From assembly GCA_041661745.1 (NCBI GenBank), contig JBAZTR010000001.1:79740-143739 (forward strand): a DNA stretch of 64,000 nucleotides, read 5' to 3'. A program made the translations under genes and the position numbers. Under the pieces are notes generated by a model, which saw only the letters and a list, made by a program, of their open reading frames with translations, had not been told where the DNA came from and did no database searches. This document shows, one piece after another, positions 7,312 to 57,300 of this stretch; position 1 is the stretch's first letter; each line of letters opens with the position of its first letter. This DNA comes from Patescibacteria group bacterium. Its GTDB lineage: Bacteria > Patescibacteriota > Patescibacteriia > UBA9934 > GWF2-40-263.

Positions 7312-9135
7312 ATGAAAAAAACACCTGCCCTTAAAATTGGTCTTATTCTTTTAATTATTCTAGTTTTAGGAGCAGGCTTTCTTGTCTTTAAAAATAAAAG
7401 GGCAACCCCACCTACTGATAGTTCGTCAGAAAGATGCCAACAGGATGATTTTCCATATCTGGACTCCAGCCTACCTACCCAAGACAGAGTAGACGATTTA
7501 ATGAGCCGCATGAGCGAATGGGAAAAAATCGGCCAAATGGTGTTAGTTGAAAAAAACAGCCTTCACAACCTTGGTGATATTACTCAATATAATTTGGGGG
7601 CGTTATTGAGCGGCGGCGGGGCCGGGCCAAAGGAAAATACGCCACAAGCATGGCTTGAAATGGTGGGTGGCTTTCAGGCCGCGGCTAAAGAAACTTGTTT
7701 AGGCATACCGCTTCTTTACGGAATTGACGCCGTTCACGGTCTTGGCAATGTTTACGGGGCGACAATTTTTCCCCACGCCATTGGGTTGGGCGCCACCGGA
7801 GATGCCGATTTGGTAAAACGAGTGGCCGAAGCCACGGCCGAGGAAATGGCCGCCACCGGGATTTATTGGAGTTTTTCGCCAAATCTTGATGTGGCCAAGG
7901 ATATTCGTTGGGGTAAAACATATGAAACCTTTGGATCAGATACGGCCAAGGTGACGCGCTTGGGCCTAGCGTATTTGGAAGGGACGCAGGACTCCTCAGA
8001 AAATTATTTTAAAGTCTTGGCGACGCTAAAACATTTTATTGGCGGCGGGGCCATGGAATACGGAACTTCTCGCAATAAAGATTTCAAGATTGAGGAAGGG
8101 AACATAATAATTGATGAAGAAACTTTACGTCAGGTCCACTTGGCGCCTTTTGCCGCGGCCGTGGCTAGCGGGGCACAGGCAGTTATGGTTGGTACGGCCA
8201 GCTGGCAGGGTGAAATAAATCCGGCTAATCATTATCTTTTAACCGAGGTCTTAAAAGACGAGTTGGGCTTTTCCGGTTTTGTTGTTTCTGATTGGTATGC
8301 GGTGTATGAAATTTCGTTTAGCAAGTACGAGTCCTTAGTAACCGCCATTAACGCCGGCGTTGACATGGTCATGACTCCTTTTGAATACAAAGATTTCATG
8401 TTTAACATCCAAAAAGCTTTGGCTAACGGCGACATAACAAAGGAACGGCTAGACGACGCCGTGAGAAGAATTTTGACGGTAAAATTTGCGACCGGATTAT
8501 TTGACCGCCCGCAAGCTCTGCCGGAAGGCCTTGTTGTTATTGGAAGTGAGCCGCATCGCGCCTTGGCCAGAGAGGCGGTTCGTGAGTCACAAGTTCTATT
8601 AAAAAATGAAAATTCTGTTTTGCCACTTTCGTTATCATTGAAAAAAATAATCGTCGCCGGATCAGCAGCTGACAATTTGGGTCGCCAGGCCGGCGGTTGG
8701 ACCACCGAGTGGCAGGGTATCGACGGTAATTACGGTCTGTCAGGAACTACTGTCCTTGAGGCAATAAAAAGTGCGGTTTCTAAAGAAACCGAAGTTGAAT
8801 ATAACGAGAAGGGAGATTTTTCCACTGAAGATAATCTGGCCGATGTGGGGATTGTGATTGTTGGTGAAAAACCCTACGCCGAGGGTTGGGGCGACAACGC
8901 TAAGCCAAGTTTAAGTTCCGAAGACCTTTCCACAATAGAAAAAACAAAAGTAAAAAGTAAAAAATTGGTGGTTATAATAATTTCCGGCCGGCCGCTTGAT
9001 ATTTCCTCATATTCTAAGGATTGGGATGGTATAATCGCGGCTTGGTTGCCAGGCAGTGAAGGGGAGGGGATTACTGATGTGTTATTCGGTCTTTATCCGT
9101 TTACTGGCGTTTTGCCGGTGTCATGGGATTATTAA
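7312..9135 (+). CDS. glycoside hydrolase family 3 (beta-glucosidase/beta-hexosaminidase-like), membrane-anchored
   Basis: GH3 N-terminal domain motifs (GIDAVHG, KHFIGGG) and the catalytic nucleophile context GFVVSDW. N-terminal TM helix. Confidence 0.8.
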   Translation: MKKTPALKIGLILLIILVLGAGFLVFKNKRATPPTDSSSERCQQDDFPYLDSSLPTQDRVDDLMSRMSEWEKIGQMVLVEKNSLHNLGDITQYNLGALLSGGGAGPKENTPQAWLEMVGGFQAAAKETCLGIPLLYGIDAVHGLGNVYGATIFPHAIGLGATGDADLVKRVAEATAEEMAATGIYWSFSPNLDVAKDIRWGKTYETFGSDTAKVTRLGLAYLEGTQDSSENYFKVLATLKHFIGGGAMEYGTSRNKDFKIEEGNIIIDEETLRQVHLAPFAAAVASGAQAVMVGTASWQGEINPANHYLLTEVLKDELGFSGFVVSDWYAVYEISFSKYESLVTAINAGVDMVMTPFEYKDFMFNIQKALANGDITKERLDDAVRRILTVKFATGLFDRPQALPEGLVVIGSEPHRALAREAVRESQVLLKNENSVLPLSLSLKKIIVAGSAADNLGRQAGGWTTEWQGIDGNYGLSGTTVLEAIKSAVSKETEVEYNEKGDFSTEDNLADVGIVIVGEKPYAEGWGDNAKPSLSSEDLSTIEKTKVKSKKLVVIIISGRPLDISSYSKDWDGIIAAWLPGSEGEGITDVLFGLYPFTGVLPVSWDY

Positions 9136-9154
9136 AAAATTTATTGGGGGGGGT

Positions 9155-9796
9155 ATGAGGAATATTTTGCCAGAAAAAGAATATAAAATTCTAAAAAAAT
9201 TAAACACCCCAGCCAAGGTGCAAGATTTTTTAAATAAGCTGCCGTTTAATTTTGAGCCGCATGGCGACACTTCGTATTCGCCCATGATGGTTTTAAAAAA
9301 GGGAACATGTCACTGCGCCGAAGGGGCGGTCTTGGCCGCTTTAGCCTTGCGTGTGCACGGGCACGAACCGCTACTTCTTGATCTCACTTCAAACAAAAAC
9401 GATTTTGATCATGTTGTGGCTTTATTTAAAAAAGACGGCCGCTGGGGTGCTATTTCCAAAACCAACCACGCTGTTTTGCGCTACCGCGAGCCGGTTTACG
9501 CTTCGGTTCGCGAACTGGTCATGAGTTACTTTCATGAATACTTTCTTAACAATAACGGTAAAAAAACTTTGCGGAGTTTTTCTGGGCCGGTCAATTTGAA
9601 GCGTTTTGACAAGCGCGGCTGGATGACAACTTTGGAAGAAACGGATTATATTCCGGAATATTTGGCCGAGGTGAAACATTTTTCGATTTTAACCAGAAAA
9701 CAAATCGCCGGCTTGCGTTGTGCCGAACCGATTGAAATCGAGGCAGGGAAGATTGTGGAGTGGAACTCGAAAAAAGCTAATTATACACAGGGCTGA
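9155..9796 (+). CDS. hypothetical protein (possible Cys/His/Asp fold)
   Basis: The ORF track starts at 9056, overlapping the GH3 gene. The ATG at about 9155 follows a G-run RBS and is the better start. Confidence 0.4.
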   Translation: MRNILPEKEYKILKKLNTPAKVQDFLNKLPFNFEPHGDTSYSPMMVLKKGTCHCAEGAVLAALALRVHGHEPLLLDLTSNKNDFDHVVALFKKDGRWGAISKTNHAVLRYREPVYASVRELVMSYFHEYFLNNNGKKTLRSFSGPVNLKRFDKRGWMTTLEETDYIPEYLAEVKHFSILTRKQIAGLRCAEPIEIEAGKIVEWNSKKANYTQG

Positions 9797-9823: not shown

Positions 9824-9832
9824 TGCTATAAT
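9824..9832 (+). promoter_or_regulatory. extended -10 promoter element (TGcTATAAT) upstream of the surface-protein/sortase operon
   Basis: TGCTATAAT consensus about 50 bp upstream of the 9881 start. Confidence 0.35.
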
Positions 9833-9880: not shown

Positions 9881-11674
9881 ATGAGGAAATTTAATAGGGC
9901 TTCAATGATAGCATTGGTTGCCGCTTTTTTGTTTAGCTTCGTTGGGCCAGTAACGGTACAAGCTGCCACTGCGCCAGACCTTGGTGCGGCTGAAAGTTAC
10001 GCAGTTTTCGGTAAAGCCGGCGTAACTAACGACTCAGCCGTCGGAACAACCCATATTTGGGGGAATGTTGGCGCCGATGCCACCAATGTTACCTTTCTCG
10101 ATGACGCGACACAGGTGGATGGAGTAATAGATAGTGGAGTCGGGGTTGAAGCGGCCATTTTGTCGGCCTATGGTGAACTGGCAGGCGAGGGAGTTACCGG
10201 AGCTCTTGACCTGGCTGGGAACAATACGGTCACCCCAGGCGTTTACACCGTGGGAGCAACCAACCTAGATGGTACTCTTACACTTAACGGTGAAGGTGTT
10301 TACATCTTTCGAAGTTCGTCCAGTATTTCAACTTCCGGACCGGCACAAGTCGTTTTAACCAACGGTGCTTCGGCTTGTGATGTGTATTGGCAGATTCCTA
10401 CAGCCATGACTATTGGGACTGGCACAGTTATGGTGGGAACTATCATAACAAATACGGCCGAAATCACTCTCGCCACTGGCGCAAGCTTGAATGGTCGAGC
10501 TTTGTCTCGCAACACCCAAGTGACTTTGGACAGTAACTCGATTACTGAACCAGTTTGCACGGCGGCAGTGTCGGGGGGCGGTTCTAACCAATACACCGCC
10601 ACAATCAATGTCGTCAAAACCGTTATTAATGACAACGGCGGCACAAAGACCGTTGCTGATTTTCCGTTGTTTATTAACCAAGCTCCGGTCGACTCCGGTG
10701 TGACCAATAATTTTTATTTCTTTTTTCCAGGTTCGTATACCATGAGTGAAACAAGCGATCCTGGCTATACTCAATCCTTTTCTGGCGACTGCGGCAGTGA
10801 TGGTCAATTATACTTATATTCAAACGAAAATAAGTTTTGTATTATAACCAACAACGATATTGGCGCCCCGGTCGTGGCCCCGCCAGTACCACCTCTTATT
10901 GATGTGGTTAAGGTACCAAGTCCGCTAGTTTTACCAGACGGACCAGATACCGTGAACTACACTTATACCTTACGGAACGTCGGCACTGTTCCGGTGACTG
11001 ATATAACCATGGTTGGCGACACTTGTTATCCTATTGCTCTTACTTCAGGCGATACTAATGCCGATGGAAAACTCGATTTGACCGAAACCTGGGTGTACAA
11101 CTGTGCCAAAATTATTTCTGAAACCCACACCAATACCGTGGTGGCAACCGGCTGGGCCAACGGTCTTTCGGCCACTGATATTGCTAGTGCGACTGTAGTT
11201 GTTAATGATGAAATTGTTCCACCATTAATCCACGTGACCAAAGTTCCAAGTCCGTTAACTCTGTTAGCTGGGGGCGGCACGGTTACTTATACTGAAAGAA
11301 TTACCAATCCTGGAACTGTCGCTCTAAGTAATGTTCACCTTACGGATGATAAATGTAGTCCAATGGCCTATGTTTCCGGAGACGTTAACGGCGACTCTTT
11401 ACTTCAAACAACCGAAACCTGGACTTATACCTGTCAAACGAATTTGACTCAATCAACAACCAACACTGCCTCAGCTACGGGTGAAGCCAATGGCGTGACC
11501 GTACGTGATCTTGCTTTGGCTACGGTTACCGTGGCCGCGGCTGTTCCAGCTTTGCCTAATACCGGTCTTACTCCTGAAAAAGAAGTATCTTCATGGAATA
11601 TTGGCTTGTTGGCCGGCCTTATTACCCTAGCTTCTGTGTTACTTATAGCAGGACTAAAAAAACGTTTTAATTAG
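9881..11674 (+). CDS. sortase-anchored cell-surface protein: N-terminal ice-binding-like (DUF3494-type) domain, DUF11-type repeats, C-terminal LPNTG sorting signal
   Basis: Signal peptide. LGAAESYAVFGKAG...THIWGNVGA ice-binding-like motif. Repeated VVKVPSPL...NVGTVPVTD...TETW units. LPNTG followed by a TM helix and a KKRFN tail. Confidence 0.7.
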   Translation: MRKFNRASMIALVAAFLFSFVGPVTVQAATAPDLGAAESYAVFGKAGVTNDSAVGTTHIWGNVGADATNVTFLDDATQVDGVIDSGVGVEAAILSAYGELAGEGVTGALDLAGNNTVTPGVYTVGATNLDGTLTLNGEGVYIFRSSSSISTSGPAQVVLTNGASACDVYWQIPTAMTIGTGTVMVGTIITNTAEITLATGASLNGRALSRNTQVTLDSNSITEPVCTAAVSGGGSNQYTATINVVKTVINDNGGTKTVADFPLFINQAPVDSGVTNNFYFFFPGSYTMSETSDPGYTQSFSGDCGSDGQLYLYSNENKFCIITNNDIGAPVVAPPVPPLIDVVKVPSPLVLPDGPDTVNYTYTLRNVGTVPVTDITMVGDTCYPIALTSGDTNADGKLDLTETWVYNCAKIISETHTNTVVATGWANGLSATDIASATVVVNDEIVPPLIHVTKVPSPLTLLAGGGTVTYTERITNPGTVALSNVHLTDDKCSPMAYVSGDVNGDSLLQTTETWTYTCQTNLTQSTTNTASATGEANGVTVRDLALATVTVAAAVPALPNTGLTPEKEVSSWNIGLLAGLITLASVLLIAGLKKRFN

Positions 11675-11699
11675 TCAGGGTCCTCTGATTAGTAAAGAC

Positions 11700-11730
11700 C
11701 CCGCCAGAGCGGGGTCTTTACATTATGGAG
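11700..11730 (+). terminator. rho-independent terminator
   Basis: agaccccgc-caga-gcggggtct hairpin followed by a T-run. Confidence 0.55.
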
Positions 11731-11743
11731 GTTTTGGCAATCT

Positions 11744-12409
11744 ATGCAATTAAGTAATTTATTTAAATTGTCGTTGTTTCTTACTATTATTGTGGGAATT
11801 GTCTTTTTTTTAGTAATTACTTTTTTTCTGCCGCCTAATCCATCTAGCCAAGATTCTGTCGCGAATTCGGTCGTGTCTGTCAATGACCAAGTTTCGCAAA
11901 TCACGGCTGTCAATGGGCCAACCAAAGATATCCAAGCCGCTGTTTTTACTGAACAGTCTGAACCACTTATTTTTTTCCATCTAAGTATTCCCAAAATCGG
12001 AGTCGCGACAGCCGTTGAATCTGTCGGTCTTACCCCCCAAGGTGCCGTGGACGTGCCAAGAGATCCGGCTAACGCCGCTTGGTTTAATCTTGGACCACGG
12101 CCAGGAGAAAGTGGCAGTGCAGTTATTACCGGCCATTACGGTCGCTGGAAAAACGGGGAAGGTTCGGTTTTTGATGACTTAAATAAACTAAGTCAAGGTG
12201 ATAATATATATATTGAGGATGAAAAAGGGGAAACAACAACTTTTGTAGTGCGTGAAAGTCGAAAGTACGATCCGACTGCAGATGCCCCGGAAATATTTAG
12301 TTCAAGTGATAGCAAGGTTCACCTCAATTTAATTACTTGCGAAGGTACATGGAATAACGAAGCTCAGCAGTATTCTGAGCGGTTGGTAGTTTTTGCCGAC
12401 AAAGAATAG
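11744..12409 (+). CDS. sortase (transpeptidase)
   Basis: N-terminal TM anchor, the active-site His context (VITGHYG) and the TLxTC motif (LITCEG). Sits between two LPXTG substrates. Confidence 0.8.
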   Translation: MQLSNLFKLSLFLTIIVGIVFFLVITFFLPPNPSSQDSVANSVVSVNDQVSQITAVNGPTKDIQAAVFTEQSEPLIFFHLSIPKIGVATAVESVGLTPQGAVDVPRDPANAAWFNLGPRPGESGSAVITGHYGRWKNGEGSVFDDLNKLSQGDNIYIEDEKGETTTFVVRESRKYDPTADAPEIFSSSDSKVHLNLITCEGTWNNEAQQYSERLVVFADKE

Positions 12410-12417
12410 TATCAAAT

Positions 12418-14931
12418 ATGCCAAATCAAAAAGTTAAAATATTTAATAAATTTTTAGTAACAATTGTTTTAGCGGCGGTTTTTACTTTTGGTTTTGTCGG
12501 AACTATCGGAGCCGAGACTGTAATAGATTTTGGCTCGGCCGATAGTTTTGCTGTTCTGGCCGGCTCGGGGATTGAAAATACCGGCTTGACCACAATCAAC
12601 GGCGATGTCGGATCGTTCCCAACCCTTACCCAGAACGGTTTTGGTTCCGTTACTTTGAATGGAACAAACCATTTTGGTGATGTGGTTACGCAAGGGGCTA
12701 AAACCGATTTAACGGCCGCCTATATCGATGCCGCTGGTCGAGGGCCAACCACACCCATTGCCGCCGATCTTGGTGGACAGACCCTGCCTCCCGGTATTTA
12801 TAAAGATAATGGTGCTCCAGCGTCTCTTTCGAATTCCGGAACATTAACCCTCGATGGCGGCGGTGATGCTAACGCTATTTTTATTTTTCAATCGGCCACC
12901 ACTCTTACCACAGCCTCCGCCAGTGTGGTCGAACTAATCAATGGAGCTAAGGCTGAAAATGTTTTTTGGCAGGTTGGCAGTTCGGCCACTCTTGGGGCTA
13001 ACTCGACCTTCAAAGGAAATATAATAGCCTTAACATCTATTACTCTTATAACCGGAGCCGAGGTGGAGGGTCGAATGCTGGCGCGAAACGGCGCGGTTAC
13101 TTTAGATGCTAATGTCATTACTGTTCCCTTTGACACCACTCCTCCAGTCGCTATCTCCGACTTAGCCCTTTCCGGGGCCACCACTTCTTCTATTGTTCTC
13201 ACCTGGACGGCGCCTGGTGATGATGTTGGTGTTGGTACGGCCGCCCTTTATGATATTCGTTATTCCACTTCACCGATTGTTACGCCAGCTGACTTTACTG
13301 GTGCAGCTCTAGTTTCCGGTGAGCCGGTTCCCACAGCTGCTGGAACTTCTCAGACTAAGACCGTCTCCGGTCTTTCCGCCAACACTCTTTACTACTTCGC
13401 CATGAAGACGCAAGACGAAGTTCCGAATGTCTCAGATGTTTCTAATATTCCATCGTTGTCGACAGCGGCCATGCCTGACATTATTCCCCCAGTTGATATC
13501 TCCGATCTAGCTCTCTCAGGCGCCACCACTTCTTCCATTGTTCTCACCTGGACGGCGCCTGGTGATGATGTTGATGTTGGTACAGCCGCGCTTTACGATA
13601 TTCGTTATTCCACTTCACCGATTGTTACGCCAGCTGACTTCACTGGCGCAGCTTTGGTTTCCGGTGAACCGGTTCCCACAGCGGCTGGGACTTCTCAGAC
13701 TAAGACTGTCTCCGGACTTTCCGCCAACACTCTTTACTACTTCGCCATGAAGACACAAGACGAAGTGCCGAATGTTTCAGATGTTTCTAATATTCCATCG
13801 TTGTCAACGGTAGCGCTTAATCCGGAGGGAATGAGTCAATTAACGGGCACAATCAATGTTGTTAAAACCGTTATCAACGACAATGGAGGTATTAAGACTG
13901 TTGCCGACTTTCCATTGTTTATAAATGAGGTGCCGGTCGATTCCGGTGTAACCAATCACCTTTATTTTTATTCTTCAGGTTTATATACCATGAGCGAAAC
14001 CACCGATCCTGGATATACTCAAACCTTTTCCGGCGACTGCGGTAGTAGTGGTCAATTATATTTGTATTCAAGCGACAAGAAGTTTTGTATTATCACCAAC
14101 GATGATATTGGTGTTCCGGTCGTGGCTCCACCCGTGCCACCCCTTATTGATGTGGTTAAGGTGCCAAGCCCTTTGGCTTTGCCTGATGGTCCCGGTTTGG
14201 TGACTTACACTTATACCTTGCGCAATGTCGGAACCGTGCCAGTAACTGACATAACCATGGTTGTTGACACCTGTTCTCCCATTGTCCTTGATTCCGGTGA
14301 TATTAACGGTGATGCCAAACTCGACCTGACCGAAACTTGGGTGTACAAATGTGCCAAAATTATTTCAGAAACCCACACCAATATCGTAGTGGTTACCGGC
14401 TGGGCCAACGGTCTTTCGGCTACTGACATTGCCAGTGCCACTGTGGTTGTTGGTGATTCAATTATTCCGCCTTTAATTCACGTGACTAAAGTTCCGAGCC
14501 CATTAACATTGCTAGCCGGGGGCGGATCCGTTACTTATACCGAAACAATCACAAATCCGGGCACGGTTGCTTTAAATAATGTCGCCCTGGCAGATGATAA
14601 ATGCAGTCCAATGAAATTTATTTCCGGCGATACTAACAATGATTCAAAACTTGATGTCGATGAAGCATGGAAATTTACTTGTCAGACCAATTTAACTAAA
14701 ACTACGACAAACACCGCCACGGCCAGTGGCGAAGCTAATGGTCTTACAATTAGAGATTTTGCTCTCACCACCGTTGTCGTGGCGGCGGTTGCTCCGGTTT
14801 TGCCCAGCACCGGCCTGGCGCCGGAAAGGGAAGTGACTTCACGGGATTTAATCACGTTGGCCGGTCTTCTTATCCTGGTTACTACTCTTTTTGCAGTGAG
14901 ATTAAAACACACGAGTAAATTAGGACGATAA
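12418..14931 (+). CDS. sortase-anchored cell-surface protein: ice-binding-like (DUF3494-type) domain, two tandem FN3 domains, DUF11-type repeats, LPSTG sorting signal
   Basis: Signal peptide. FAVLAGSGIENTGLTTINGDVG motif. Two near-identical FN3 repeats of about 116 aa. The C-terminal half is paralogous to the 9881 gene. LPSTG followed by a TM helix and a basic tail. Confidence 0.7.
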   Translation: MPNQKVKIFNKFLVTIVLAAVFTFGFVGTIGAETVIDFGSADSFAVLAGSGIENTGLTTINGDVGSFPTLTQNGFGSVTLNGTNHFGDVVTQGAKTDLTAAYIDAAGRGPTTPIAADLGGQTLPPGIYKDNGAPASLSNSGTLTLDGGGDANAIFIFQSATTLTTASASVVELINGAKAENVFWQVGSSATLGANSTFKGNIIALTSITLITGAEVEGRMLARNGAVTLDANVITVPFDTTPPVAISDLALSGATTSSIVLTWTAPGDDVGVGTAALYDIRYSTSPIVTPADFTGAALVSGEPVPTAAGTSQTKTVSGLSANTLYYFAMKTQDEVPNVSDVSNIPSLSTAAMPDIIPPVDISDLALSGATTSSIVLTWTAPGDDVDVGTAALYDIRYSTSPIVTPADFTGAALVSGEPVPTAAGTSQTKTVSGLSANTLYYFAMKTQDEVPNVSDVSNIPSLSTVALNPEGMSQLTGTINVVKTVINDNGGIKTVADFPLFINEVPVDSGVTNHLYFYSSGLYTMSETTDPGYTQTFSGDCGSSGQLYLYSSDKKFCIITNDDIGVPVVAPPVPPLIDVVKVPSPLALPDGPGLVTYTYTLRNVGTVPVTDITMVVDTCSPIVLDSGDINGDAKLDLTETWVYKCAKIISETHTNIVVVTGWANGLSATDIASATVVVGDSIIPPLIHVTKVPSPLTLLAGGGSVTYTETITNPGTVALNNVALADDKCSPMKFISGDTNNDSKLDVDEAWKFTCQTNLTKTTTNTATASGEANGLTIRDFALTTVVVAAVAPVLPSTGLAPEREVTSRDLITLAGLLILVTTLFAVRLKHTSKLGR
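13141..13836 (+). repeat. near-perfect tandem duplication (2 x ~348 bp) encoding FN3-like domains
   Basis: Unit 13141-13488 is repeated at 13489-13836 with only a few substitutions. Confidence 0.8.
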
Positions 14932-15870
14932 AATTAGAATTTTTTGTAGGTCCTCCATTGTCTTCAGTGTACTAATCGTGCGTCGCAACTCAGCCACCCC
15001 TGGCAAGCCGCGGAAATACCAAACCAAATGTTTGCGAAAACCGACAAGGTTGCTTTGGCCGCTGTGTTTTAAATATAATTCAGCATGACGAAGAATAACT
15101 CTGGTCCGTTCGGCCGGAGTTATTATTTTTGCCTCACGACCGGCCAGGGTGTCCTCAATGTTTCGAAAGATCCACGGGTTACCCAAAGCTCCTCGACCGA
15201 TAAGAATGCCGTCAACGCCGGTTTTAAGGGCCCGCAGGGCTTCGGCGGCCGTGGTAATGTCACCATTACCTAGAACAGGAATGGAAACAGCTTTTTTAAC
15301 GCGAGCAATCATTTCCCAATCAGCTTTGCCGGAATATTCCTGCTTTTTTGTTCGTCCATGAACAGAAATTAAATCAGCCCCGGCTTTTTCAACAATCGGA
15401 GCAAAAGTTAATATCTCGTCGGGCTTACTCCAACCCAAACGCATCTTAACCGAAACCGGCGTCTTAACCGCGGCTTTAACGGCGCGAACAATGGCCGCGG
15501 CTTTTTCCGGATCTTTCATTAAAGCCGAGCCGTTGAAATTAGAAATAATCTTTTTGGCCGGACAGCCCATGTTAATATCGATGCCATCCGGATGATATTT
15601 TTCTTCAATAAGTTTCGCCGCCCGAGCCATGACTTCAGGATTGCCGCCAAAAATTTGTTGAACAAGCGGTCGCTCGCCCTCATTTATTTTGGCCATCTGA
15701 CCGGTCTTCTCATTGCCGCGGACAATTGCCTCGGCCGAAACCATTTCGCGAAAAACCACGGTCGAGGGCGCGAGCTCCTTAACCAAAAGACAAAACGCCG
15801 CGTCTGTGTGATCAGCCATGGGCGAGAGGGCAATGATGGGGGTTTTGGCATTATTCCAAGTGACTTTCAT
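14920..15870 (-). CDS. dus: tRNA-dihydrouridine synthase
   Basis: Dus family TIM-barrel motifs (LSPMADHTD, INMGCPAKK, SVHGRT). Confidence 0.8.
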   Translation of the reverse strand: MKVTWNNAKTPIIALSPMADHTDAAFCLLVKELAPSTVVFREMVSAEAIVRGNEKTGQMAKINEGERPLVQQIFGGNPEVMARAAKLIEEKYHPDGIDINMGCPAKKIISNFNGSALMKDPEKAAAIVRAVKAAVKTPVSVKMRLGWSKPDEILTFAPIVEKAGADLISVHGRTKKQEYSGKADWEMIARVKKAVSIPVLGNGDITTAAEALRALKTGVDGILIGRGALGNPWIFRNIEDTLAGREAKIITPAERTRVILRHAELYLKHSGQSNLVGFRKHLVWYFRGLPGVAELRRTISTLKTMEDLQKILILSS

Positions 15871-37286: not shown

Positions 37287-38707
<1,421 letters not shown>

Positions 38708-39723: not shown

Positions 39724-40128
39724 ATGCACACATGCCACCACGCCTTAATCCGTTGCATGGACTTTCGCCTTCAAAAAGCGATTGATCAATGGATGGTAGA
39801 AAAAAATTTAGCCGGTGACTGTGACATGATTTCCGTGGCCGGAGCAGGGAAGGATATTGTAGATAACCCGGACGGTTTCGTGGCCACACAAATTGATTTG
39901 TCTTCAAAATTACACGCCACCAAAACCGTTCTCCTCATGAATCACATGGATTGCGGGGCATACGGTGGACATACTGCTTTCGAAAATCTTGAAACCGAAC
40001 GTGCTCATCATATTTCCGAAATGACCAAAGCAGCCGAAACAATCAAAGCCAAACGTCCTGATATGGAAGTGAAAATGATTTTGGCTAATATTGATGAGAA
40101 CGGCACAGTGACGATTGAAAATATATAA
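39724..40128 (+). CDS. beta-class carbonic anhydrase-like protein (short form)
   Basis: CMDFR and HMDCG zinc-ligand motifs. Confidence 0.6.
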   Translation: MHTCHHALIRCMDFRLQKAIDQWMVEKNLAGDCDMISVAGAGKDIVDNPDGFVATQIDLSSKLHATKTVLLMNHMDCGAYGGHTAFENLETERAHHISEMTKAAETIKAKRPDMEVKMILANIDENGTVTIENI

Positions 40129-40141
40129 AAAATAGATAAAG

Positions 40142-40175
40142 GCACCTGATTTGTTCAGGTGCTTTTTATTATTGT
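40142..40175 (+). terminator. rho-independent terminator
   Basis: gcacctga-tttgt-tcaggtgc hairpin followed by a T-run. Confidence 0.6.
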
Positions 40176-40229
40176 TTTTTTTGGACTTTTATAATAAGAT
40201 TTCCCCGCCTCTAGCCCACGGAGTTTACC

Positions 40230-41144
40230 ATGCCGGCTCCTACCTTCGACGACCTGCCCAGTTTCAACATCCCTCTGGAAATTGCCGACAAGGGGTGCTG
40301 CGGAAAGGCACTCAGAGCAGCCGAATTTCTCTACAAGCACTTCGGTCTGTCGCCACAGATGGTTCCAAGAACCCTGATCGTTCTGGGCAGCGGCCTCGGC
40401 GAAGCTCTCGTCATCAAGGATGAGCAGGCCATCGACCTCTCCGAGATCCCTGGATTCGAAGGACTGCCGACTCACCCGACGCACAAGCGCCAGCTCTGCT
40501 TCGGCTCGATCAGTGGGCGGCTGGTGTTCGTCCTGCGCGGGCGGATCCACTTGAACGAAGGCCCGAACGACCAGGCCCACCTCGATCGCCTTCGCCTCAT
40601 GACCGAGATGTTCTGCGTCATCGGCGTCAAGAACTATGTTCTCACCGCGGCCGTCGGCGCCATCTACTACGCTCTGCCGTGGTGGAAGCGCGTGTTCGTG
40701 CCAAACCCCCTGGGGGCCATGGCCTTCATCGACGGCTTCTTCACCCAGTTCGCCCCAGTGCGCTGCGGCCGCAGTGCCGAGTTCGCCTGCAAGGAAGGCC
40801 TGCTCGACCCGGAGCTTATCCAGAAAGCCGAACGCGTCGCTCGGTTGTCCGGCTTCAGAACGGTCAGGGGCGTTCACGGCATGATCATCGGCCCCTACTT
40901 CGAAACCTGGTTCGACAAGCTGACCCTGGCCAAACTCGGGGTCAAGGTCGTCGGCATGTCCATTCTGCCCGAGGTGGACATCGTTTCACTCTACAACGAC
41001 GGAACCATGAGGGTGCTGCCGGTTGGCCTCGTCACCAACCTCGACCGCGGCAGGCACAGCGACAAGGAGATCCGCGCCAAGGTCGGGGGTGCGGTCGTGA
41101 AATTCGCTGATTTCATCGGCGGCTTGCTCCAGGTCATCGGCTAG
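40230..41144 (+). CDS. PNP/PunA-family nucleoside phosphorylase (PNP_UDP_1 fold)
   Basis: LIVLGSGLGEAL phosphate-binding loop and VVGMSILPEV motif. GC3-rich codons. Confidence 0.65.
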   Translation: MPAPTFDDLPSFNIPLEIADKGCCGKALRAAEFLYKHFGLSPQMVPRTLIVLGSGLGEALVIKDEQAIDLSEIPGFEGLPTHPTHKRQLCFGSISGRLVFVLRGRIHLNEGPNDQAHLDRLRLMTEMFCVIGVKNYVLTAAVGAIYYALPWWKRVFVPNPLGAMAFIDGFFTQFAPVRCGRSAEFACKEGLLDPELIQKAERVARLSGFRTVRGVHGMIIGPYFETWFDKLTLAKLGVKVVGMSILPEVDIVSLYNDGTMRVLPVGLVTNLDRGRHSDKEIRAKVGGAVVKFADFIGGLLQVIG

Positions 41145-41152
41145 CTCCTCTC

Positions 41153-41180
41153 TACACCCCTCGCCGGGTGTATTTTTTTT
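41153..41180 (+). terminator. rho-independent terminator
   Basis: tacaccc-ctcgcc-gggtgta hairpin followed by T8. Confidence 0.55.
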
Positions 41181-41276
41181 ATAAAAAATATCAAAAAAGG
41201 AGGCTTGACCGTTTCTAGTTTTTGTGGTTAAGATATCGGGCCAGCAACCGCTGGATAGTGATAGGGGGTTTGAACC

Positions 41277-42476
41277 ATGGGTAGCCTTTTCCCAGGATTC
41301 TTGGCATTCTTGGCTGATGTGCCCGCGGCCGAGGCCAAGGCAGCGGAGATCCGCAACTTCCTTCCCCAGATCAACATGGGCGAAGTGAGGACCGAGTTCT
41401 CGCCCGAAGACGTCCACGGCATCCTGTGCGCGATCCTGAAGCCGCTGGAGGACATTCCCGCTGGCTTCAGTCTCCAGGACGAAGCCGGTCACGGGTCGGG
41501 CCACATGCGGCGGGACTTGCTCCACGCCGTTCTCCTCGGCACCCGCCTCAAGGACATCGACGCGAGCCATTGCTTCCCGGCGATCATCGCCGGAACCCTT
41601 CACGACGTGGGCTGCTTCATCGTCAAGCGCTACGGGGATGCTCACGAGCTTCTCCGCCACGCCGAGGTCGGGGCCCTGTACGTGAACTACGTCCTGGAAC
41701 AGCTTGGCCTGGTCAACACCGCCGAGCGGATGGCCATCGTCTACGGCATCGCCGCCCACACCCACTACCTGGGACCGCAGACGGTCAAGCTGAAGGATGG
41801 TCGGGAGGTGGTGATTCAGCCATACCCCGACATGATCAACGGCAAGCCGGTCTGGTTCGTGTGGATCACCCGCTGGGTCGATCGCCTCGACTGCGGCGGT
41901 GGGGCCTTCGTCGGTCGTCACTTCCTGACCCTGCTCAAGGCGCACCAGGACTACGACGGCAAGAACTTCTACGAGGTCAGCTTCGCCGAGCACCTTCGGC
42001 CGATCCGCCGGCCGCCCGAGGAGATCAAGGCGGCGGGTGGCAAGCGCACGATGGCCGAACACCTCCAGATGTTCGTCGACACCCAGAACAACGAATCACC
42101 GTACGGCCAGCACGACTTCGGCCTGATGGTCGAGCTGCGTGACGCCTACAAGGCCCGCCTGCAGCGAGTCATCGAGGCCGTGCTCCAGCCGGACGACGGA
42201 GTGGAGCCGACCGAAGTTGACGAGATGATTGTCAGGCACTGGCTCAATCGTGTCGAGCCGAGCTACCTCGGAAGGACGACGGCCAGGGATCTGCTGATCA
42301 AGCTGCACGACCTCGACCCGGCGTCGCGGCGGGCCTGGATGCGTGGCTTCCGGGTCGCGTCCGAAGAGTACGCCGCCTGGACCCGTGAGGCATGCGGGGT
42401 CATGGCGGACATCCATGTCCTCGTCTTCCCGTTGCCGATCTTCGGCGGCATCGCCGATGTCCTCTGGATGCCGTAG
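41277..42476 (+). CDS. HD-domain metal-dependent phosphohydrolase
   Basis: H...HD...H...H pattern (HMRRDLLH, GTLHDVG, GIAAHTHY) and a C-terminal region of about 200 aa of unknown function. High GC. Confidence 0.6.
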   Translation: MGSLFPGFLAFLADVPAAEAKAAEIRNFLPQINMGEVRTEFSPEDVHGILCAILKPLEDIPAGFSLQDEAGHGSGHMRRDLLHAVLLGTRLKDIDASHCFPAIIAGTLHDVGCFIVKRYGDAHELLRHAEVGALYVNYVLEQLGLVNTAERMAIVYGIAAHTHYLGPQTVKLKDGREVVIQPYPDMINGKPVWFVWITRWVDRLDCGGGAFVGRHFLTLLKAHQDYDGKNFYEVSFAEHLRPIRRPPEEIKAAGGKRTMAEHLQMFVDTQNNESPYGQHDFGLMVELRDAYKARLQRVIEAVLQPDDGVEPTEVDEMIVRHWLNRVEPSYLGRTTARDLLIKLHDLDPASRRAWMRGFRVASEEYAAWTREACGVMADIHVLVFPLPIFGGIADVLWMP

Positions 42477-42494
42477 ACACTCCTGCGGCTCCTG

Positions 42495-42530
42495 CGGTCA
42501 ACCTTCTCAGGTTGGCCGCTTTTTTAATAA
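42495..42530 (+). terminator. rho-independent terminator
   Basis: gcggtcaacc-ttctca-ggttggccgc hairpin followed by T6. Confidence 0.55.
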
Positions 42531-42603
42531 AAAAATCCGACCCTGCGAGGCAGAGTCGGCGAGTGGAGTGGAAGTTGAAGACGATGGTGGCAGGGCGGCC
42601 TTG

Positions 42604-42972
42604 CTATTCACAGACCTCCACCCTCGTGCCGTCCACCATGAACTTGGTTCTCCGACCCGACGAGGTGTCGAGGAAGGTCACGACTGCGAACCTCCTCGAG
42701 TTCGGCGGGTCACCCTCGACAGAGGTGAGATCCCTGAACAGGGGGAGGGTGGGCTGCTGCCTGTACTGGAGGTACAGCGTGTACCCCAAGTTCTCGAGCT
42801 TGTCCACGACCATGTCCCGCTCCTTCGCCGTCTTGAAGAAGAGGACGGCGAAAACGATGGCGACGGCGAGGAGAACGAGAGCCAGGCCGACGAGCGACCC
42901 GCAAAGAAAAACAAGTGGATTCATGATTCCCTCGGGGTGCAGTGGTTCACGTCGCACGCGAGAGATTAGCAA
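42604..42972 (-). CDS. small membrane protein (one TM), high-GC island
   Basis: 122-aa ORF with one TM helix. A minus-strand terminator hairpin lies at about 42536-42563. Confidence 0.45.
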   Translation of the reverse strand: MLISRVRREPLHPEGIMNPLVFLCGSLVGLALVLLAVAIVFAVLFFKTAKERDMVVDKLENLGYTLYLQYRQQPTLPLFRDLTSVEGDPPNSRRFAVVTFLDTSSGRRTKFMVDGTRVEVCE

Positions 42973-43032
42973 AAAAACTGTTACAAGTCAAGCCTTTCGT
43001 GACCAGTGATTTCGTGATATTCTGTCCTCGTT

Positions 43033-54930: not shown

Positions 54931-57300
54931 TTAATACCCGGAATTTTCGATTATTTTTTCCAATAAATCTCTTGGAGAAATTGACGGATCTTCGGCCAAA
55001 CCTTGTTGGTATAAAACCGTTGATGGCGTTAGGGCAGGGAGGCTGTTAATTTCAATCAGTCGCAGATTACCGGTTCGTGTGTTCATAAAAGCGTCAATTC
55101 TTGCGTAATCTTTAAGGCCAATTTCAGCGGCCAGCTCTTCCATTGCGGTTTTAACCTTTTTTATCAACGCCGGTTTCATCAAACTAGCCGGCGGCGGCGT
55201 AATATTAACTCCTGTCCCGCCTTGGAATTTTTCTTCGACCGAAAGAACTTCGCCGTCGGCAATAGTTACACTGGGATTAAAAGCGTGAAATTTTCCGTTT
55301 TTTTCAATTACACCAACCGTTGTTTCTAACCAACCGGTCTTTTTGTAATGTTTTAGACGATTATTTTTTACTTTAAGAATATCGGTCTCGATAAAAGTTT
55401 CAAAAAGTAGATCTTCCGGCGTAACCGTCGGCATTTCAATAATCCCTGTTTGGTTTCTAAAAGTATTTTTAGGAATAGAAGCAGAACAATTCGCGAGAGC
55501 TTGTCGATATTTATCTAAATCATCACAAGAAAAAAGATGAACCACCCCGGTGGAGCAACCATCGGCTCGCGGTTTAACCACTAAAGTTTTGGCTTTCAGA
55601 TCCTTTTTAAGCTGATGCCAGAAATTTTTTAATTCACCATTTTTGAGCAAGAGAAGATCAGAAGTTTTTATAAGTTTTTTAGGAATAGCCGAAATATTTT
55701 TTATGGGATTTTTATTAAGTTTTTCCGCGGTTTCCCATTTATCCATACATAATCTGGAAACAATCTCATTTGAACCGTTAAACTTAACGCCTTTCTCTGC
55801 CATAATTTTCTGCAAGCGACCGTCTTCACCGAAGGCGCCGTGTAAAGCATTAAAGACGAATTCCGATCCTTTAATAAAATTTTCTAAAGACATCTTTTGT
55901 GGCTCGCCAAAGCCTTCGTTTTCATTCATTTCAGATAAACCCAAACGCATTCGTGACCGTTCTTCAAAAGCTTTCAAACGACGTTTGGCCGCCTCATATT
56001 TTTCACAGTTTTCCGCGATTTCCTCGACCGTGTGGTTTAGGGCCAGTTGATAAGGTAGCCGCCAAACATTTCCTTTAGTGTCCCAAAGAAACGGTTGTGG
56101 CCGATATTTGTTCGAACCCCTTAGCTTCAACCAAACATTGGTGCCACTCATAAGCGAAACTTGTCGTTCCGAGGTTTGACCACCGAAAAGAACATTAATT
56201 TCTTTTTTGTTTGTTTTATTCTTATGACCGTCACTTTCGGGGAATTTGATATTTTGTCGCCGACAGGCACTGGAAAGAACATGCTGTAAAAATCCGGCGT
56301 GGGTTAGGCCAACCCGGGAAGATTGTTGAAAAACAAAACTGTTTTGTTCCATGCCACTGATTGGGTTAAAATCACAAAACCAAATTCGACCATCTGGTAA
56401 AACCCAACCGTCGAATCGACCAAAATCATGCATGCCGAAAAGAGCGAAAATCTGTTCAGCTTGGGCTTGAATTTTATCAATAGTTTTGTCATCAAATCTT
56501 GGCGGGCAATGATAAACGACTTGGCGAGTCGGTAAATATTTTTTTCTGAAATCAAAAATTTGATGTTTGGTGTAGTCGGTTTCAATTTCCGTCGGCGGCA
56601 AGGCCACGGGCAAGCCAAAACGATTTTCCAAAATAATTACGGTAAATTCCGTTCCCTGAGCAAATGGCTCAATGACCACCCGAGTGTCCATTCGTTTGGA
56701 AAAAAGATAAGTCGCTTTCTCTAAAGCTTCGGTTGGGGTGGAAACGGAGAAGACGCCGATGCTTGATCCACTCGTCGCTGGTTTAACTATTGCTCTAGTG
56801 ATGGCATGATCATGGAAAAAATTATCAATTATCTTTTTGTGATCATTGTGAAAGATTTTTAAAACCGTCGAAGGTAGAGTAAAAAAACCGTGTTGACCAA
56901 TGAATTGGTTGGAGGTGAATTTGTCAAAAGCCAGTTTACAGGCCGTGGAACCAGATCCGATGAAAGGTATTTTGTTTTTTTCCAAAAAAGCTTGCAATGT
57001 ACCGTCTTCGCCAAATTGCCCGTGAATAACCGGAAACACCATGTCCGCCTCTCGAAGAAATTTAATTAAACCATCGTCGGTCATCGGTTTAGTTGTTTGC
57101 TGAAGTTTAAAATCGAAATCCGAGGGGGTATTACAATAAAGTTGGGCTTGAGAGATTTTATAGGCTTGCCGCGCGGTATTAAAGTAAATCGGAACAACCT
57201 CTATTTCCTTGCCGGACAGATGGTCAAGGACAGATCTGGCGGAATTTAGGGAAATACCTCGCTCCAAGGACGGCCCGCCGCAGAGGACAACCACTTTCAT
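54931..57300 (-). CDS. tandemly duplicated D-alanine--D-alanine ligase-family (ATP-grasp) protein
   Basis: Two Ddl-like N-domains (VVVLCGGPSLERGISLNSA and INVLFGGQTSERQVSLMSG), each followed by ATP-grasp regions. 789 aa. Confidence 0.7.
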   Translation of the reverse strand: MKVVVLCGGPSLERGISLNSARSVLDHLSGKEIEVVPIYFNTARQAYKISQAQLYCNTPSDFDFKLQQTTKPMTDDGLIKFLREADMVFPVIHGQFGEDGTLQAFLEKNKIPFIGSGSTACKLAFDKFTSNQFIGQHGFFTLPSTVLKIFHNDHKKIIDNFFHDHAITRAIVKPATSGSSIGVFSVSTPTEALEKATYLFSKRMDTRVVIEPFAQGTEFTVIILENRFGLPVALPPTEIETDYTKHQIFDFRKKYLPTRQVVYHCPPRFDDKTIDKIQAQAEQIFALFGMHDFGRFDGWVLPDGRIWFCDFNPISGMEQNSFVFQQSSRVGLTHAGFLQHVLSSACRRQNIKFPESDGHKNKTNKKEINVLFGGQTSERQVSLMSGTNVWLKLRGSNKYRPQPFLWDTKGNVWRLPYQLALNHTVEEIAENCEKYEAAKRRLKAFEERSRMRLGLSEMNENEGFGEPQKMSLENFIKGSEFVFNALHGAFGEDGRLQKIMAEKGVKFNGSNEIVSRLCMDKWETAEKLNKNPIKNISAIPKKLIKTSDLLLLKNGELKNFWHQLKKDLKAKTLVVKPRADGCSTGVVHLFSCDDLDKYRQALANCSASIPKNTFRNQTGIIEMPTVTPEDLLFETFIETDILKVKNNRLKHYKKTGWLETTVGVIEKNGKFHAFNPSVTIADGEVLSVEEKFQGGTGVNITPPPASLMKPALIKKVKTAMEELAAEIGLKDYARIDAFMNTRTGNLRLIEINSLPALTPSTVLYQQGLAEDPSISPRDLLEKIIENSGY

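Follow-up and report, generated by a model that had tools for sequence, protein, structure and literature searches.

We analysed a stretch of 64,000 nt from contig JBAZTR010000001.1 of a Patescibacteria group bacterium (the whole stretch is hereafter called the window) with regard to a sortase locus in its first quarter. Three co-directional open reading frames (ORFs) are found here on the plus strand, encoding in this order a surface protein A, a sortase and a second surface protein B (Table 1). An initial annotation of the window had described the sortase as sitting between two paralogous LPXTG proteins with DUF3494 heads, and the ORFs together with domain and fold searches confirm this arrangement. 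In protein A a signal peptide is followed by a DUF3494 head, then by a stalk of one CnaB-like and two CLIPPER_2 domains, and finally by an LPXTG sorting signal. Protein B shows the same order and carries in addition two FN3 domains between the head and the CnaB-like domain. Judged by their profile scores, the proteins are members of the Pfam families DUF3494, fn3 and CLIPPER_2 and of the sortase superfamily, and they fall outside the curated sortase classes, DUF11 sensu stricto and the ice-binding-protein equivalog. The public gene call for gene A begins at Met9, resulting in a protein of 589 aa (amino acids). Gene B encodes a protein identical to one called on the ENA contig ERZ27249449 k141_700822. 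Both proteins had been termed giant; with 597 and 837 aa they are small compared to relatives with the same stalk module, which reach about 7,000 aa.

An Rfam scan of the window returned two tRNAs only and no rRNA for taxonomy, and the alpha subunit of the ATP synthase was used in its place. It is about 80% identical to that of Ca. (Candidatus) Uhrbacteria, and all close homologues of the locus come from Patescibacteria, in agreement with the earlier assignment to the Candidate Phyla Radiation (CPR). A cassette of identical layout, including the two FN3 domains in B, is present in the Ca. Uhrbacteria metagenome-assembled genome (MAG) GCA_043805995.1 (contig JAZDHJ010000024; locus L002), whereas the A heads, the sortases and the flanking genes of the two cassettes diverge.

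Table 1. Features of the sortase cassette in the window and selected features of related loci (positions in related loci follow the locus number)
Feature	Position	Strand	Description
Candidate extended -10 promoter element, TGCTATAAT	9824..9832	+	49 nt upstream of gene A; read from sequence
Gene A, predicted secreted, LPNTG-anchored surface protein	9881-11674	+	597 aa; ORF, Pfam and NCBIfam matches
A signal peptide, aa 1-28 (...VQA/A)	9881..9964	+	Basic n-region, hydrophobic core, AXA-like site; helix 7-19 in the model; putative cleavage site
A head, DUF3494/ice-binding-like beta-solenoid, aa 29-232	9965..10576	+	PF11999; divergent short-type clade
A CnaB-like domain (SpaA_2), aa 238-326	10592..10858	+	K246/E290/N324, Cys304/Cys320
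A CLIPPER_2 (DUF7507) domain 1, aa 338-441	10892..11203	+	K344/D380/N418, Cys382/Cys408; Ca-loop-like SGDTNADGKLD
A CLIPPER_2 (DUF7507) domain 2, aa 448-551	11222..11533	+	K454/D489-D490/N528, Cys492/Cys518
A cell-wall sorting signal: LPNTG, transmembrane helix, KKRFN tail	11552..11671	+	Sequence; helix 572-596 in the model
Terminator-like hairpin	11692..11721	+	13-bp stem, CAGA loop; between gene A and sortase gene; GC-rich
Sortase gene	11744-12409	+	221 aa; PF04203
Gene B, predicted secreted, LPSTG-anchored surface protein	12418-14931	+	837 aa; ORF, Pfam and NCBIfam matches
B head, DUF3494 beta-solenoid, aa 33-240	12514..13137	+	PF11999; mainstream CPR head type
B FN3 copy 1, aa 242-356	13141-13485	+	PF00041; TRF period 345, score 1150
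B FN3 copy 2, aa 357-471	13486-13830	+	PF00041; TRF period 345, score 1150
B CnaB-like domain, aa 475-563	13840..14106	+	K483/E527/N561; in register with the domain of A
B CLIPPER_2 domains 1 and 2, aa 575-678 and 685-788	14140..14781	+	K581/D617/N655, K691/D727/N765
B cell-wall sorting signal: LPSTG, transmembrane helix, RLKHTSKLGR tail	14800..14928	+	Sequence
Extra short DUF3494 genes in related loci	L003 4900-5910, L008 2-1150, L011 4731-5978, L015 3-1151, L016 2505-3683, L017 4704-5966, L042 2991-4109
Hairpin-bearing related loci	L003, L004, L008, L010, L012, L013, L015, L018, L020, L021, L023

Domains of the two surface proteins and the sortase

Both heads match PF11999 (Ice_binding) above its cutoff of 28.7 bits, A with 103.8 bits (E 1.3e-29) and B with 190.8 bits (E 3e-56). 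The motifs AESYAVFGKAG and SFAVLAGSG...TTINGDVG, named in the initial annotation, are both present, and its ice-binding-like assignment is backed by the family match. An AlphaFold2 model of A (mean predicted local distance difference test, pLDDT, of 85.2) showed a beta-solenoid flanked by a single long helix (residues 89-101). When this model was compared by Foldseek to every solved DUF3494 ice-binding protein, target TM-scores ranged from 0.70 to 0.88. Between the two heads identity is as low as 41%, and they represent different DUF3494 clades. The B head is of the type found on most of the CPR homologues of about 600 aa. The closest relatives of the A head (55–69% identity) are Patescibacteria proteins of about 300 aa made up of a signal peptide, a head, a Pro/Thr-rich linker and LPXTG. 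A therefore looks like a short-type head fused to the canonical stalk, a rarer combination.

An extra, shorter DUF3494 gene was also noticed at many CPR loci, mostly directly upstream of the stalked adhesin gene, some of these genes having LPXTG-like tails (Table 1). In L008 and L015 it is located about 4.6–4.8 kb upstream of the stalked adhesin. The A head of the window belongs to the same short-type clade as these extra genes.

The stalk comprises three domains in each protein. For the whole proteins PF24346 (DUF7507/CLIPPER_2) was the best stalk family, with 39.3 bits for A and 31.7 bits for B at a cutoff of 27; scanned alone, domain 2 scored 38.5 bits in A and 34.9 bits in B. The DUF11-type modules of the initial annotation hold at the level of the superfamily, since the DUF11 type repeat TIGR01451 passes its cutoff of 24 (25.1 bits in A, 28.8 bits in B) and PF24346 scores best; they do not hold for DUF11 itself, as PF01345 gave 21.7 and 20.1 bits at a cutoff of 24.6. 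The CnaB-like domain had been missed. In A, scanned alone, it scored 29.6 bits against PF19403 (SpaA_2), above the cutoff of 25. The name CLIPPER_2 was given to DUF7507 in 2025; the family is described as a CnaA-like domain with a predicted intramolecular Lys/Asp/Asn isopeptide bond and as a close relative of DUF11/CLIPPER (PMC12617251). For CLIPPER (DUF11), the Asp-catalysed Lys-Asn isopeptide bond has been shown crystallographically (PDB 9IFR) and confers thermal and protease resistance, and disulfides accompany about a third of CLIPPER-type domains (PMC12617251).

To assess the conservation of the putative bond-forming residues, we aligned 33 canonical members of the family. Only three lysines, K246, K344 and K454, are invariant in this alignment, and their partners E290/N324, D380/N418 and D490/N528 are either invariant or at least 90% conserved. 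In the CnaB-like domain the complete triad and both cysteines are invariant. In CLIPPER_2 domain 1 this applies to K344, N418 and both cysteines, with D380 conserved to at least 90%. Each of the stalk domains has an invariant cysteine pair, and B carries the triad residues in register with A. In a model of the stalk only (pLDDT 94.9; predicted TM-score, pTM, 0.90) each lysine is located on the first strand of its domain; the asparagine occupies the final strand of the CnaB-like domain and the penultimate one of each CLIPPER_2 domain. The spacing of the CLIPPER_2 triads is comparable to that of the reference triads in PMC12617251. The very high confidence of the stalk model suggests a rigid rod, and three Lys-Asn isopeptide bonds are predicted per stalk from the alignment and the model. 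Furthermore, each CLIPPER_2 domain features an SGDxNxDxKLDxxE loop that resembles Ca2+-binding loops, a likeness for which one weak match, to FG-GAP_3, was found.

The stalks of A and B are 80% identical in protein sequence, and stalk identity across CPR classes ranges from 59 to 80%. For the 3' halves of the two genes an identity of about 85% at the nucleotide level had been reported; recomputed over the same coordinates, it amounts to 76.6% (63–87% per 100 nt). The stalk module itself is found in as many as 39 copies in proteins that extend to about 7,000 aa (P0361-P0504), so that truly giant adhesins made from CLIPPER_2, to judge from these predicted proteins, exist elsewhere.

Both proteins start with a basic and then hydrophobic signal sequence and end with LPNTG or LPSTG, a transmembrane (TM) helix and a basic tail, as noted initially. 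Among the 117 ORFs of at least 80 aa in the window they are the only two with such a tail. In the 33 homologues L558, P559 and G562 of the sorting signal are invariant and T561 is at least 90% conserved. The sortase matches PF04203 with 81.7 bits (E 4.7e-23, cutoff 26.6). It has an N-terminal TM anchor (aa 8-30) and a catalytic domain (aa 80-221) with His131, Cys199 and Arg213 in the motifs TGH, ITC and ERL. The sequence at the catalytic cysteine reads NLITC and not TLxTC as originally given.

Gene A and the sortase gene are separated by a 75-nt spacer that folds at a dG of -37.7 kcal/mol (z -6.5) into the hairpin listed in Table 1. The same hairpin is present in L002 (5113-5146), where two base pairs have changed in a compensatory manner and the stem pattern AAAG...CCGC / GCGG...CTTT is shared with the window, and strong hairpins occur at the equivalent position in 13 related loci. 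We regard it as a putative intrinsic-terminator-like element that may set a high ratio of adhesin to sortase transcripts. A consensus scan for terminators missed it due to the lack of a long T run. At the candidate -10 element upstream of gene A a -35 hexamer is absent, so that the scan made no promoter call there either; its promoter and terminator counts were at or below the shuffled expectation. The gap between the sortase gene and gene B measures 8 nt, and the two are probably co-transcribed. Downstream, gene B runs into a convergent gene for a tRNA-dihydrouridine synthase (14920-15870, minus strand); the 3' ends of the two genes overlap by 12 nt (14920-14931), leaving no space for a terminator between them.

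Family distribution, synteny and the FN3 pair

A search with B retrieved 4,492 proteins at E ≤1e-5. Most of them are proteins of about 600 aa combining PF11999 and PF24346 from many classes of Patescibacteria, and where named they are called "ice-binding family protein" or also "TIGR01451 repeat protein". The module of two CLIPPER_2 domains and LPXTG alone matches 651 clusters (50% identity) at E ≤1e-30. Thousands of near-identical architectures are thus already present in public databases under generic names. In the searchable literature we found nothing on this family, and no experimental work on any of its members, when looking for DUF3494 or ice-binding proteins in CPR or in connection with a sortase or LPXTG. 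Among species-representative genomes the full architecture is restricted to Patescibacteria, apart from two probably misbinned contigs. Relatives sharing the head only are found in Actinomycetota, Acidobacteriota, Chloroflexota and others; outside Patescibacteria the DUF3494 head is combined with different anchoring tails, for instance LPVTG or PEP-CTERM/IPTL-like signals.

The Patescibacteria genes for the proteins of about 600 aa share both the domain order and the arrangement of adhesin followed by sortase with the window. A sortase located directly downstream on the same strand, or fused to the adhesin, was found in 25 of 29 Patescibacteria-type loci, compared to 6 of 52 loci of other phyla. 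This indicates that adhesin followed by sortase is a conserved CPR dyad. The sortase is the only gene consistently linked to the adhesin gene, and the other flanking genes vary between loci. Most related loci have a single full-length, stalk-bearing substrate beside the sortase. A second, FN3-bearing paralogue after the sortase is found in the window and in L002, in the same A-sortase-B order and between different flanking genes.

In four independent relatives (L016, 3696-6077; P0030, P0085 and P0096) the LPXTG motif is followed by the sortase catalytic domain in one polypeptide. These fusions have neither the TM helix of the substrate nor the TM anchor of the sortase. They could be self-sorting variants or deletion products.

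Comparison of the window with L002 revealed very different degrees of identity for the individual modules. B is 77% identical overall, with 81% for the head, 84–88% for the FN3 copies and 73–77% for the stalks (all protein). The sortases share 49% and the A heads 37% identity. These unequal values indicate that the cassette is a mosaic of modules with different histories, for which head-swapping recombination would be the simplest explanation. We also asked whether the stalks of A and B evolve strongly in concert in the window. This was rejected, as the CLIPPER_2 pairs of A and B are 79% identical to each other within the window and 76–79% identical to their orthologues; the effect is marginal here and clear only in L002, where A and B share 88%.

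The tandem FN3 pair described in B is supported both by PF00041 (fn3), which matches two stretches (E 1.1e-11, 45.2 bits, cutoff 25), and by the tandem repeat finder TRF. Its unit had been given as 348 bp and almost perfectly duplicated; it measures 345 bp, and the copies share 91% of their DNA sequence, with uninterrupted identity extending over 44 bp at most. Within a core of 108 codons the identity amounts to 98% at the protein and 91.4% at the DNA level; 26 of the differences are synonymous and 2 non-synonymous. The synonymous and non-synonymous distances (dS 0.37, dN 0.009) result in a dN/dS of about 0.02, pointing to strong purifying selection. At synonymous sites the copies are closer within a genome (dS 0.37 in the window, 0.43 in L002) than between the genomes (0.9–1.4), and they share lineage-specific residues within each genome. 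The orthologue in L002 also has two copies, with a junction homologous to that in the window. Among relatives the copy number is 2, 2, 3 and 2, and the three copies of the third relative are most alike one another. The similarity within genomes together with the homologous junction argues for an old duplication followed by occasional gene conversion. The last homogenisation took place long ago, as judged by the dS and the short exact run.

On account of the duplication the initial annotation had suggested recent or recurring slippage, and it regarded the proteins as prime candidates for host-attachment or phase-variable surface structures. B would then be length- or phase-variable through frequent slippage or recombination of a near-identical tandem. 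The 345-bp repeat is real, its copy number does vary among relatives, and the closeness of the copies within one protein speaks for gene conversion or re-duplication in the past. Nevertheless we consider frequent slippage highly improbable. The copies have diverged at synonymous sites and have no long exact run in common, and the orthologue has likewise kept two copies, joined at a homologous junction. Adding or removing one 345-bp unit would preserve the reading frame and could not switch expression. We also looked for simple sequence repeats and homopolymers of at least 7 nt in or upstream of A and B and found none except an A7 tract at 11656, in the basic C-terminal tail of A; runs of T7–T8 are located only inside the sortase gene. 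Likewise, no inverted repeats flanking a promoter, as in invertible promoters, were found at the locus. The locus in the window is a routine member of its family, and the family-level picture is the more useful one.

Probable surface adhesins and alternative readings

From the domain identities, the head fold, the conservation of triads and sorting signals and the synteny of adhesin and sortase in CPR, we infer that the cassette of this Ca. Uhrbacteria cell probably builds two covalently wall-anchored, rod-like surface adhesins. A and B would be exported by the Sec pathway via their signal peptides, and the membrane-anchored sortase would cut LPXT/G and join them to peptidoglycan precursors. 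The membrane-proximal rod of one CnaB-like and two CLIPPER_2 domains would be locked by three self-formed Lys-Asn isopeptide bonds and by disulfides, with the Ca2+ loops probably stiffening it too. This rod would hold the DUF3494 head away from the cell, in B by about two FN3 domains further out owing to its two extra spacers. The hairpin after gene A would probably keep the adhesin transcripts in excess over those of the sortase. As the heads of A and B belong to different DUF3494 clades, two binding specificities would be displayed on one common stalk. The window also contains genes for a penicillin-binding protein (PBP) transpeptidase and a D-Ala-D-Ala ligase (Ddl), which indicates that the cell makes peptidoglycan, the putative acceptor that the sortase needs. 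A role in surface display fits the occurrence of the same head on other surface-anchoring tails in other phyla.

In its mode of action the locus would resemble the MSCRAMMs of Gram-positive bacteria or fibrillar adhesins whose stalk is of isopeptide type. With the CLIPPER/CLIPPER_2 fibrillar adhesins (PMC12617251; PDB 9IFR) and the MSCRAMM-type adhesins with CnaB stalks, A and B share a signal peptide, a distal binding domain, a tandem Ig-like stalk of isopeptide type and a sorting signal, and in addition the Lys/Asp/Asn and Lys/Glu/Asn triads and the accompanying disulfides. They differ in that the distal domain is a DUF3494 solenoid, the stalk is short (three domains) and unusually conserved, and the lineage is CPR. 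The isopeptide bond has been demonstrated for CLIPPER (9IFR) only and is predicted for CLIPPER_2, and the term "ice-binding" never occurs in the text of the CLIPPER paper (Costa et al. 2025, Protein Sci; PMC12617251). With the class F and E sortases of Actinomycetota and Bacillota the sortase shares the PF04203 fold, the N-terminal membrane anchor, the His/Cys/Arg residues and an apparent LPXTG substrate. Unlike these, it is dedicated to an adjacent substrate gene across CPR and stays under the class F and E cutoffs.

Several results weigh against such wall-anchored adhesins. Scanned alone, CLIPPER_2 domain 1 stays below the PF24346 cutoff of 27 in both proteins (A 21.9 bits, E 1.9e-4; B 20.1 bits), and the CnaB-like domain of B does so for PF19403 (19.4 bits, cutoff 25). 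A fold search of the PDB with the model of the three-domain stalk returned generic Ig arrays only, for example integrin legs and RbmA. When PDB sequences were searched with a profile built from the family alignment, only the heads of ice-binding proteins came up and no relative of the stalk. In view of this, membership in CnaA/CnaB rests on the Pfam scores and the triads. The sortase scores below every NCBIfam class cutoff, the nearest class being F (NF033748, 110.7 bits, cutoff 166), followed by class E (39.7 bits, cutoff 160) and class C (NF033745, 34.3 bits, cutoff 160). The hairpin after gene A has a short U tract and not a long one, so that termination is not assured. Finally, the B head is 49% identical to the proven ice-binding protein EfcIBP.

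The latter similarity raises the question of whether A and B are true ice-binding proteins or ice adhesins, with heads that bind ice and tether the cell to it or shape it. A sequence search with the B head matched 25 solved DUF3494 chains. Its closest counterpart of solved structure is EfcIBP (PDB 6EIO, E 6e-49, 206 aligned residues) from an Antarctic ciliate-associated bacterial consortium, with an alignment that spans the entire domain. EfcIBP is free and consists of one domain only (237 residues), whereas in B the head is combined with FN3 domains, a stalk of isopeptide type and a wall anchor. The superposition of the A head on solved DUF3494 proteins and the family name given by NCBI point in the same direction. 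Moreover, SfIBP_1 of Shewanella frigidimarina (PDB 6BG8), which both sequence and fold searches matched, combines DUF3494 with tandem beta-sandwich extenders; it is surface-tethered and a proposed ice adhesin (PMC11645318). In the window, however, the order is head, stalk and C-terminal anchor, the predicted anchor is a covalent LPXTG one, and the stalk is of isopeptide type and not BIg. Ice binding is proven for SfIBP_1 and, for A and B, hypothetical. S. frigidimarina is a Gram-negative organism.

Overall we hold ice binding to be unlikely. The NCBIfam ice-binding equivalog NF045625 gave 53.1 bits for A and 99.8 bits for B at a cutoff of 400. The family has more than 4,000 members, and record titles place many of them in MAGs of Patescibacteria from aquifers, groundwater and lakes (GW2011, RIFOXY, CG, NC_groundwater, LacPavin), while head-only relatives occur in soil Actinomycetota and Acidobacteriota. 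Aquifer, groundwater, lake and soil habitats of this kind are not known to freeze. Ice-binding activity is not readable from sequence, and the literature treats DUF3494 as both ice-binding and substrate-binding (PMC12337378). Given the abundance of the family in aquifer, lake and soil lineages, the equivalog scores far below the cutoff and the recognised substrate-binding DUF3494 proteins, we favour a ligand other than ice. Most likely the heads would recognise an ordered surface, for example a polymer of the host cell wall or another polysaccharide. Attachment to a host is plausible from the adhesin-like architecture, although on this ground alone the heads might just as well recognise ice or a different ordered surface. 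For the adhesins proposed here the label "ice-binding family protein" should not be taken as evidence of cold adaptation.

A sortase between two proteins with CnaB-like and CnaA-like domains is also the layout of Gram-positive pilus islands. The sortase could thus polymerise A and/or B through Lys-Thr isopeptide bonds, similar to class C enzymes. Solved sortases match the sequence weakly (E about 1e-3), and the best of them is of class C (E 9e-4). The class C profile, though, is missed by a wide range and class F is nearest. The invariant lysines in the 33 homologues are the three triad lysines only, leaving no conserved pilin-motif lysine, and the single full-length substrate at most related loci does not fit a pilus. 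Both proteins furthermore have a bulky N-terminal head, in contrast to shaft pilins. A sortase-built pilus is therefore very unlikely. The Pam pilus of CPR, described in a preprint, is an unrelated donor-strand-exchange system.

Instead of mediating adhesion, the heads might form a surface coat or spacer, or serve as carbohydrate-binding or -processing modules together with neighbouring glycoside hydrolases (GH). The window encodes a secreted GH3 upstream of the cassette (7312-9135), and in L002 the cassette is flanked downstream by a gene for a GH1 (8522-9567). Beta-solenoids are common among polysaccharide-active proteins, and the unusual conservation of the stalk across CPR classes would suit a role embedded in the envelope. 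On the other hand, the flanking genes vary and the sortase alone is consistently linked. No catalytic activity is known for the DUF3494 fold, of which all solved members are ice binders, and two divergent heads would be needless for a coat. We consider such non-adhesive roles distinctly unlikely. The GH genes beside the cassette in both Uhrbacteria loci may be a coincidence or reflect a loose functional link.

Returning to wall-anchored adhesins, a broader function can be considered for the family as a whole. How CPR cells recognise and hold their hosts is little understood beyond type IV pili and the recently described Pam pili. The present family comprises very abundant, CPR-restricted, sortase-anchored proteins under the database label "ice-binding", whose domains have now been mapped, including three predicted isopeptide bonds, heads of two clades and the dedicated sortase. 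DUF3494 head, LPXTG and dedicated sortase could together constitute a CPR-wide attachment device, in which interchangeable heads on an isopeptide-locked stalk set the host or substrate that is bound. This remains a speculative idea and, as it stands, a rather unlikely one. It touches on the two head clades found here and on the A head swapped between otherwise related genomes. If it were true, a general fold for adhesins to ordered surfaces would include, as one specialised branch, the ice-binding proteins of polar microbes, and the TM-less fusions in four relatives would be self-sorting variants.

Other genes in the window

Apart from the sortase locus, we noticed peculiarities in three further regions of the window. 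A 789-aa ORF at 54931-57300 on the minus strand contains two stretches each of Dala_Dala_lig_N and Dala_Dala_lig_C and thus represents a tandem-fused Ddl. A frameshift interrupts the gene for the beta subunit of the ATP synthase (37299-38707): its first ORF (37299-38255) goes out of frame behind GRIPSAV, and the remaining part of the protein is read in a different frame at 38156-38707. Either an assembly error or a real frameshift would account for this. Finally, a block at about 40100-43000 shows a G+C content of 0.58 compared to 0.38–0.47 in the rest of the window. It contains a PNP_UDP_1-like ORF (40230-41144) and a 399-aa ORF without a Pfam match (41277-42476), and may be a horizontally acquired island.

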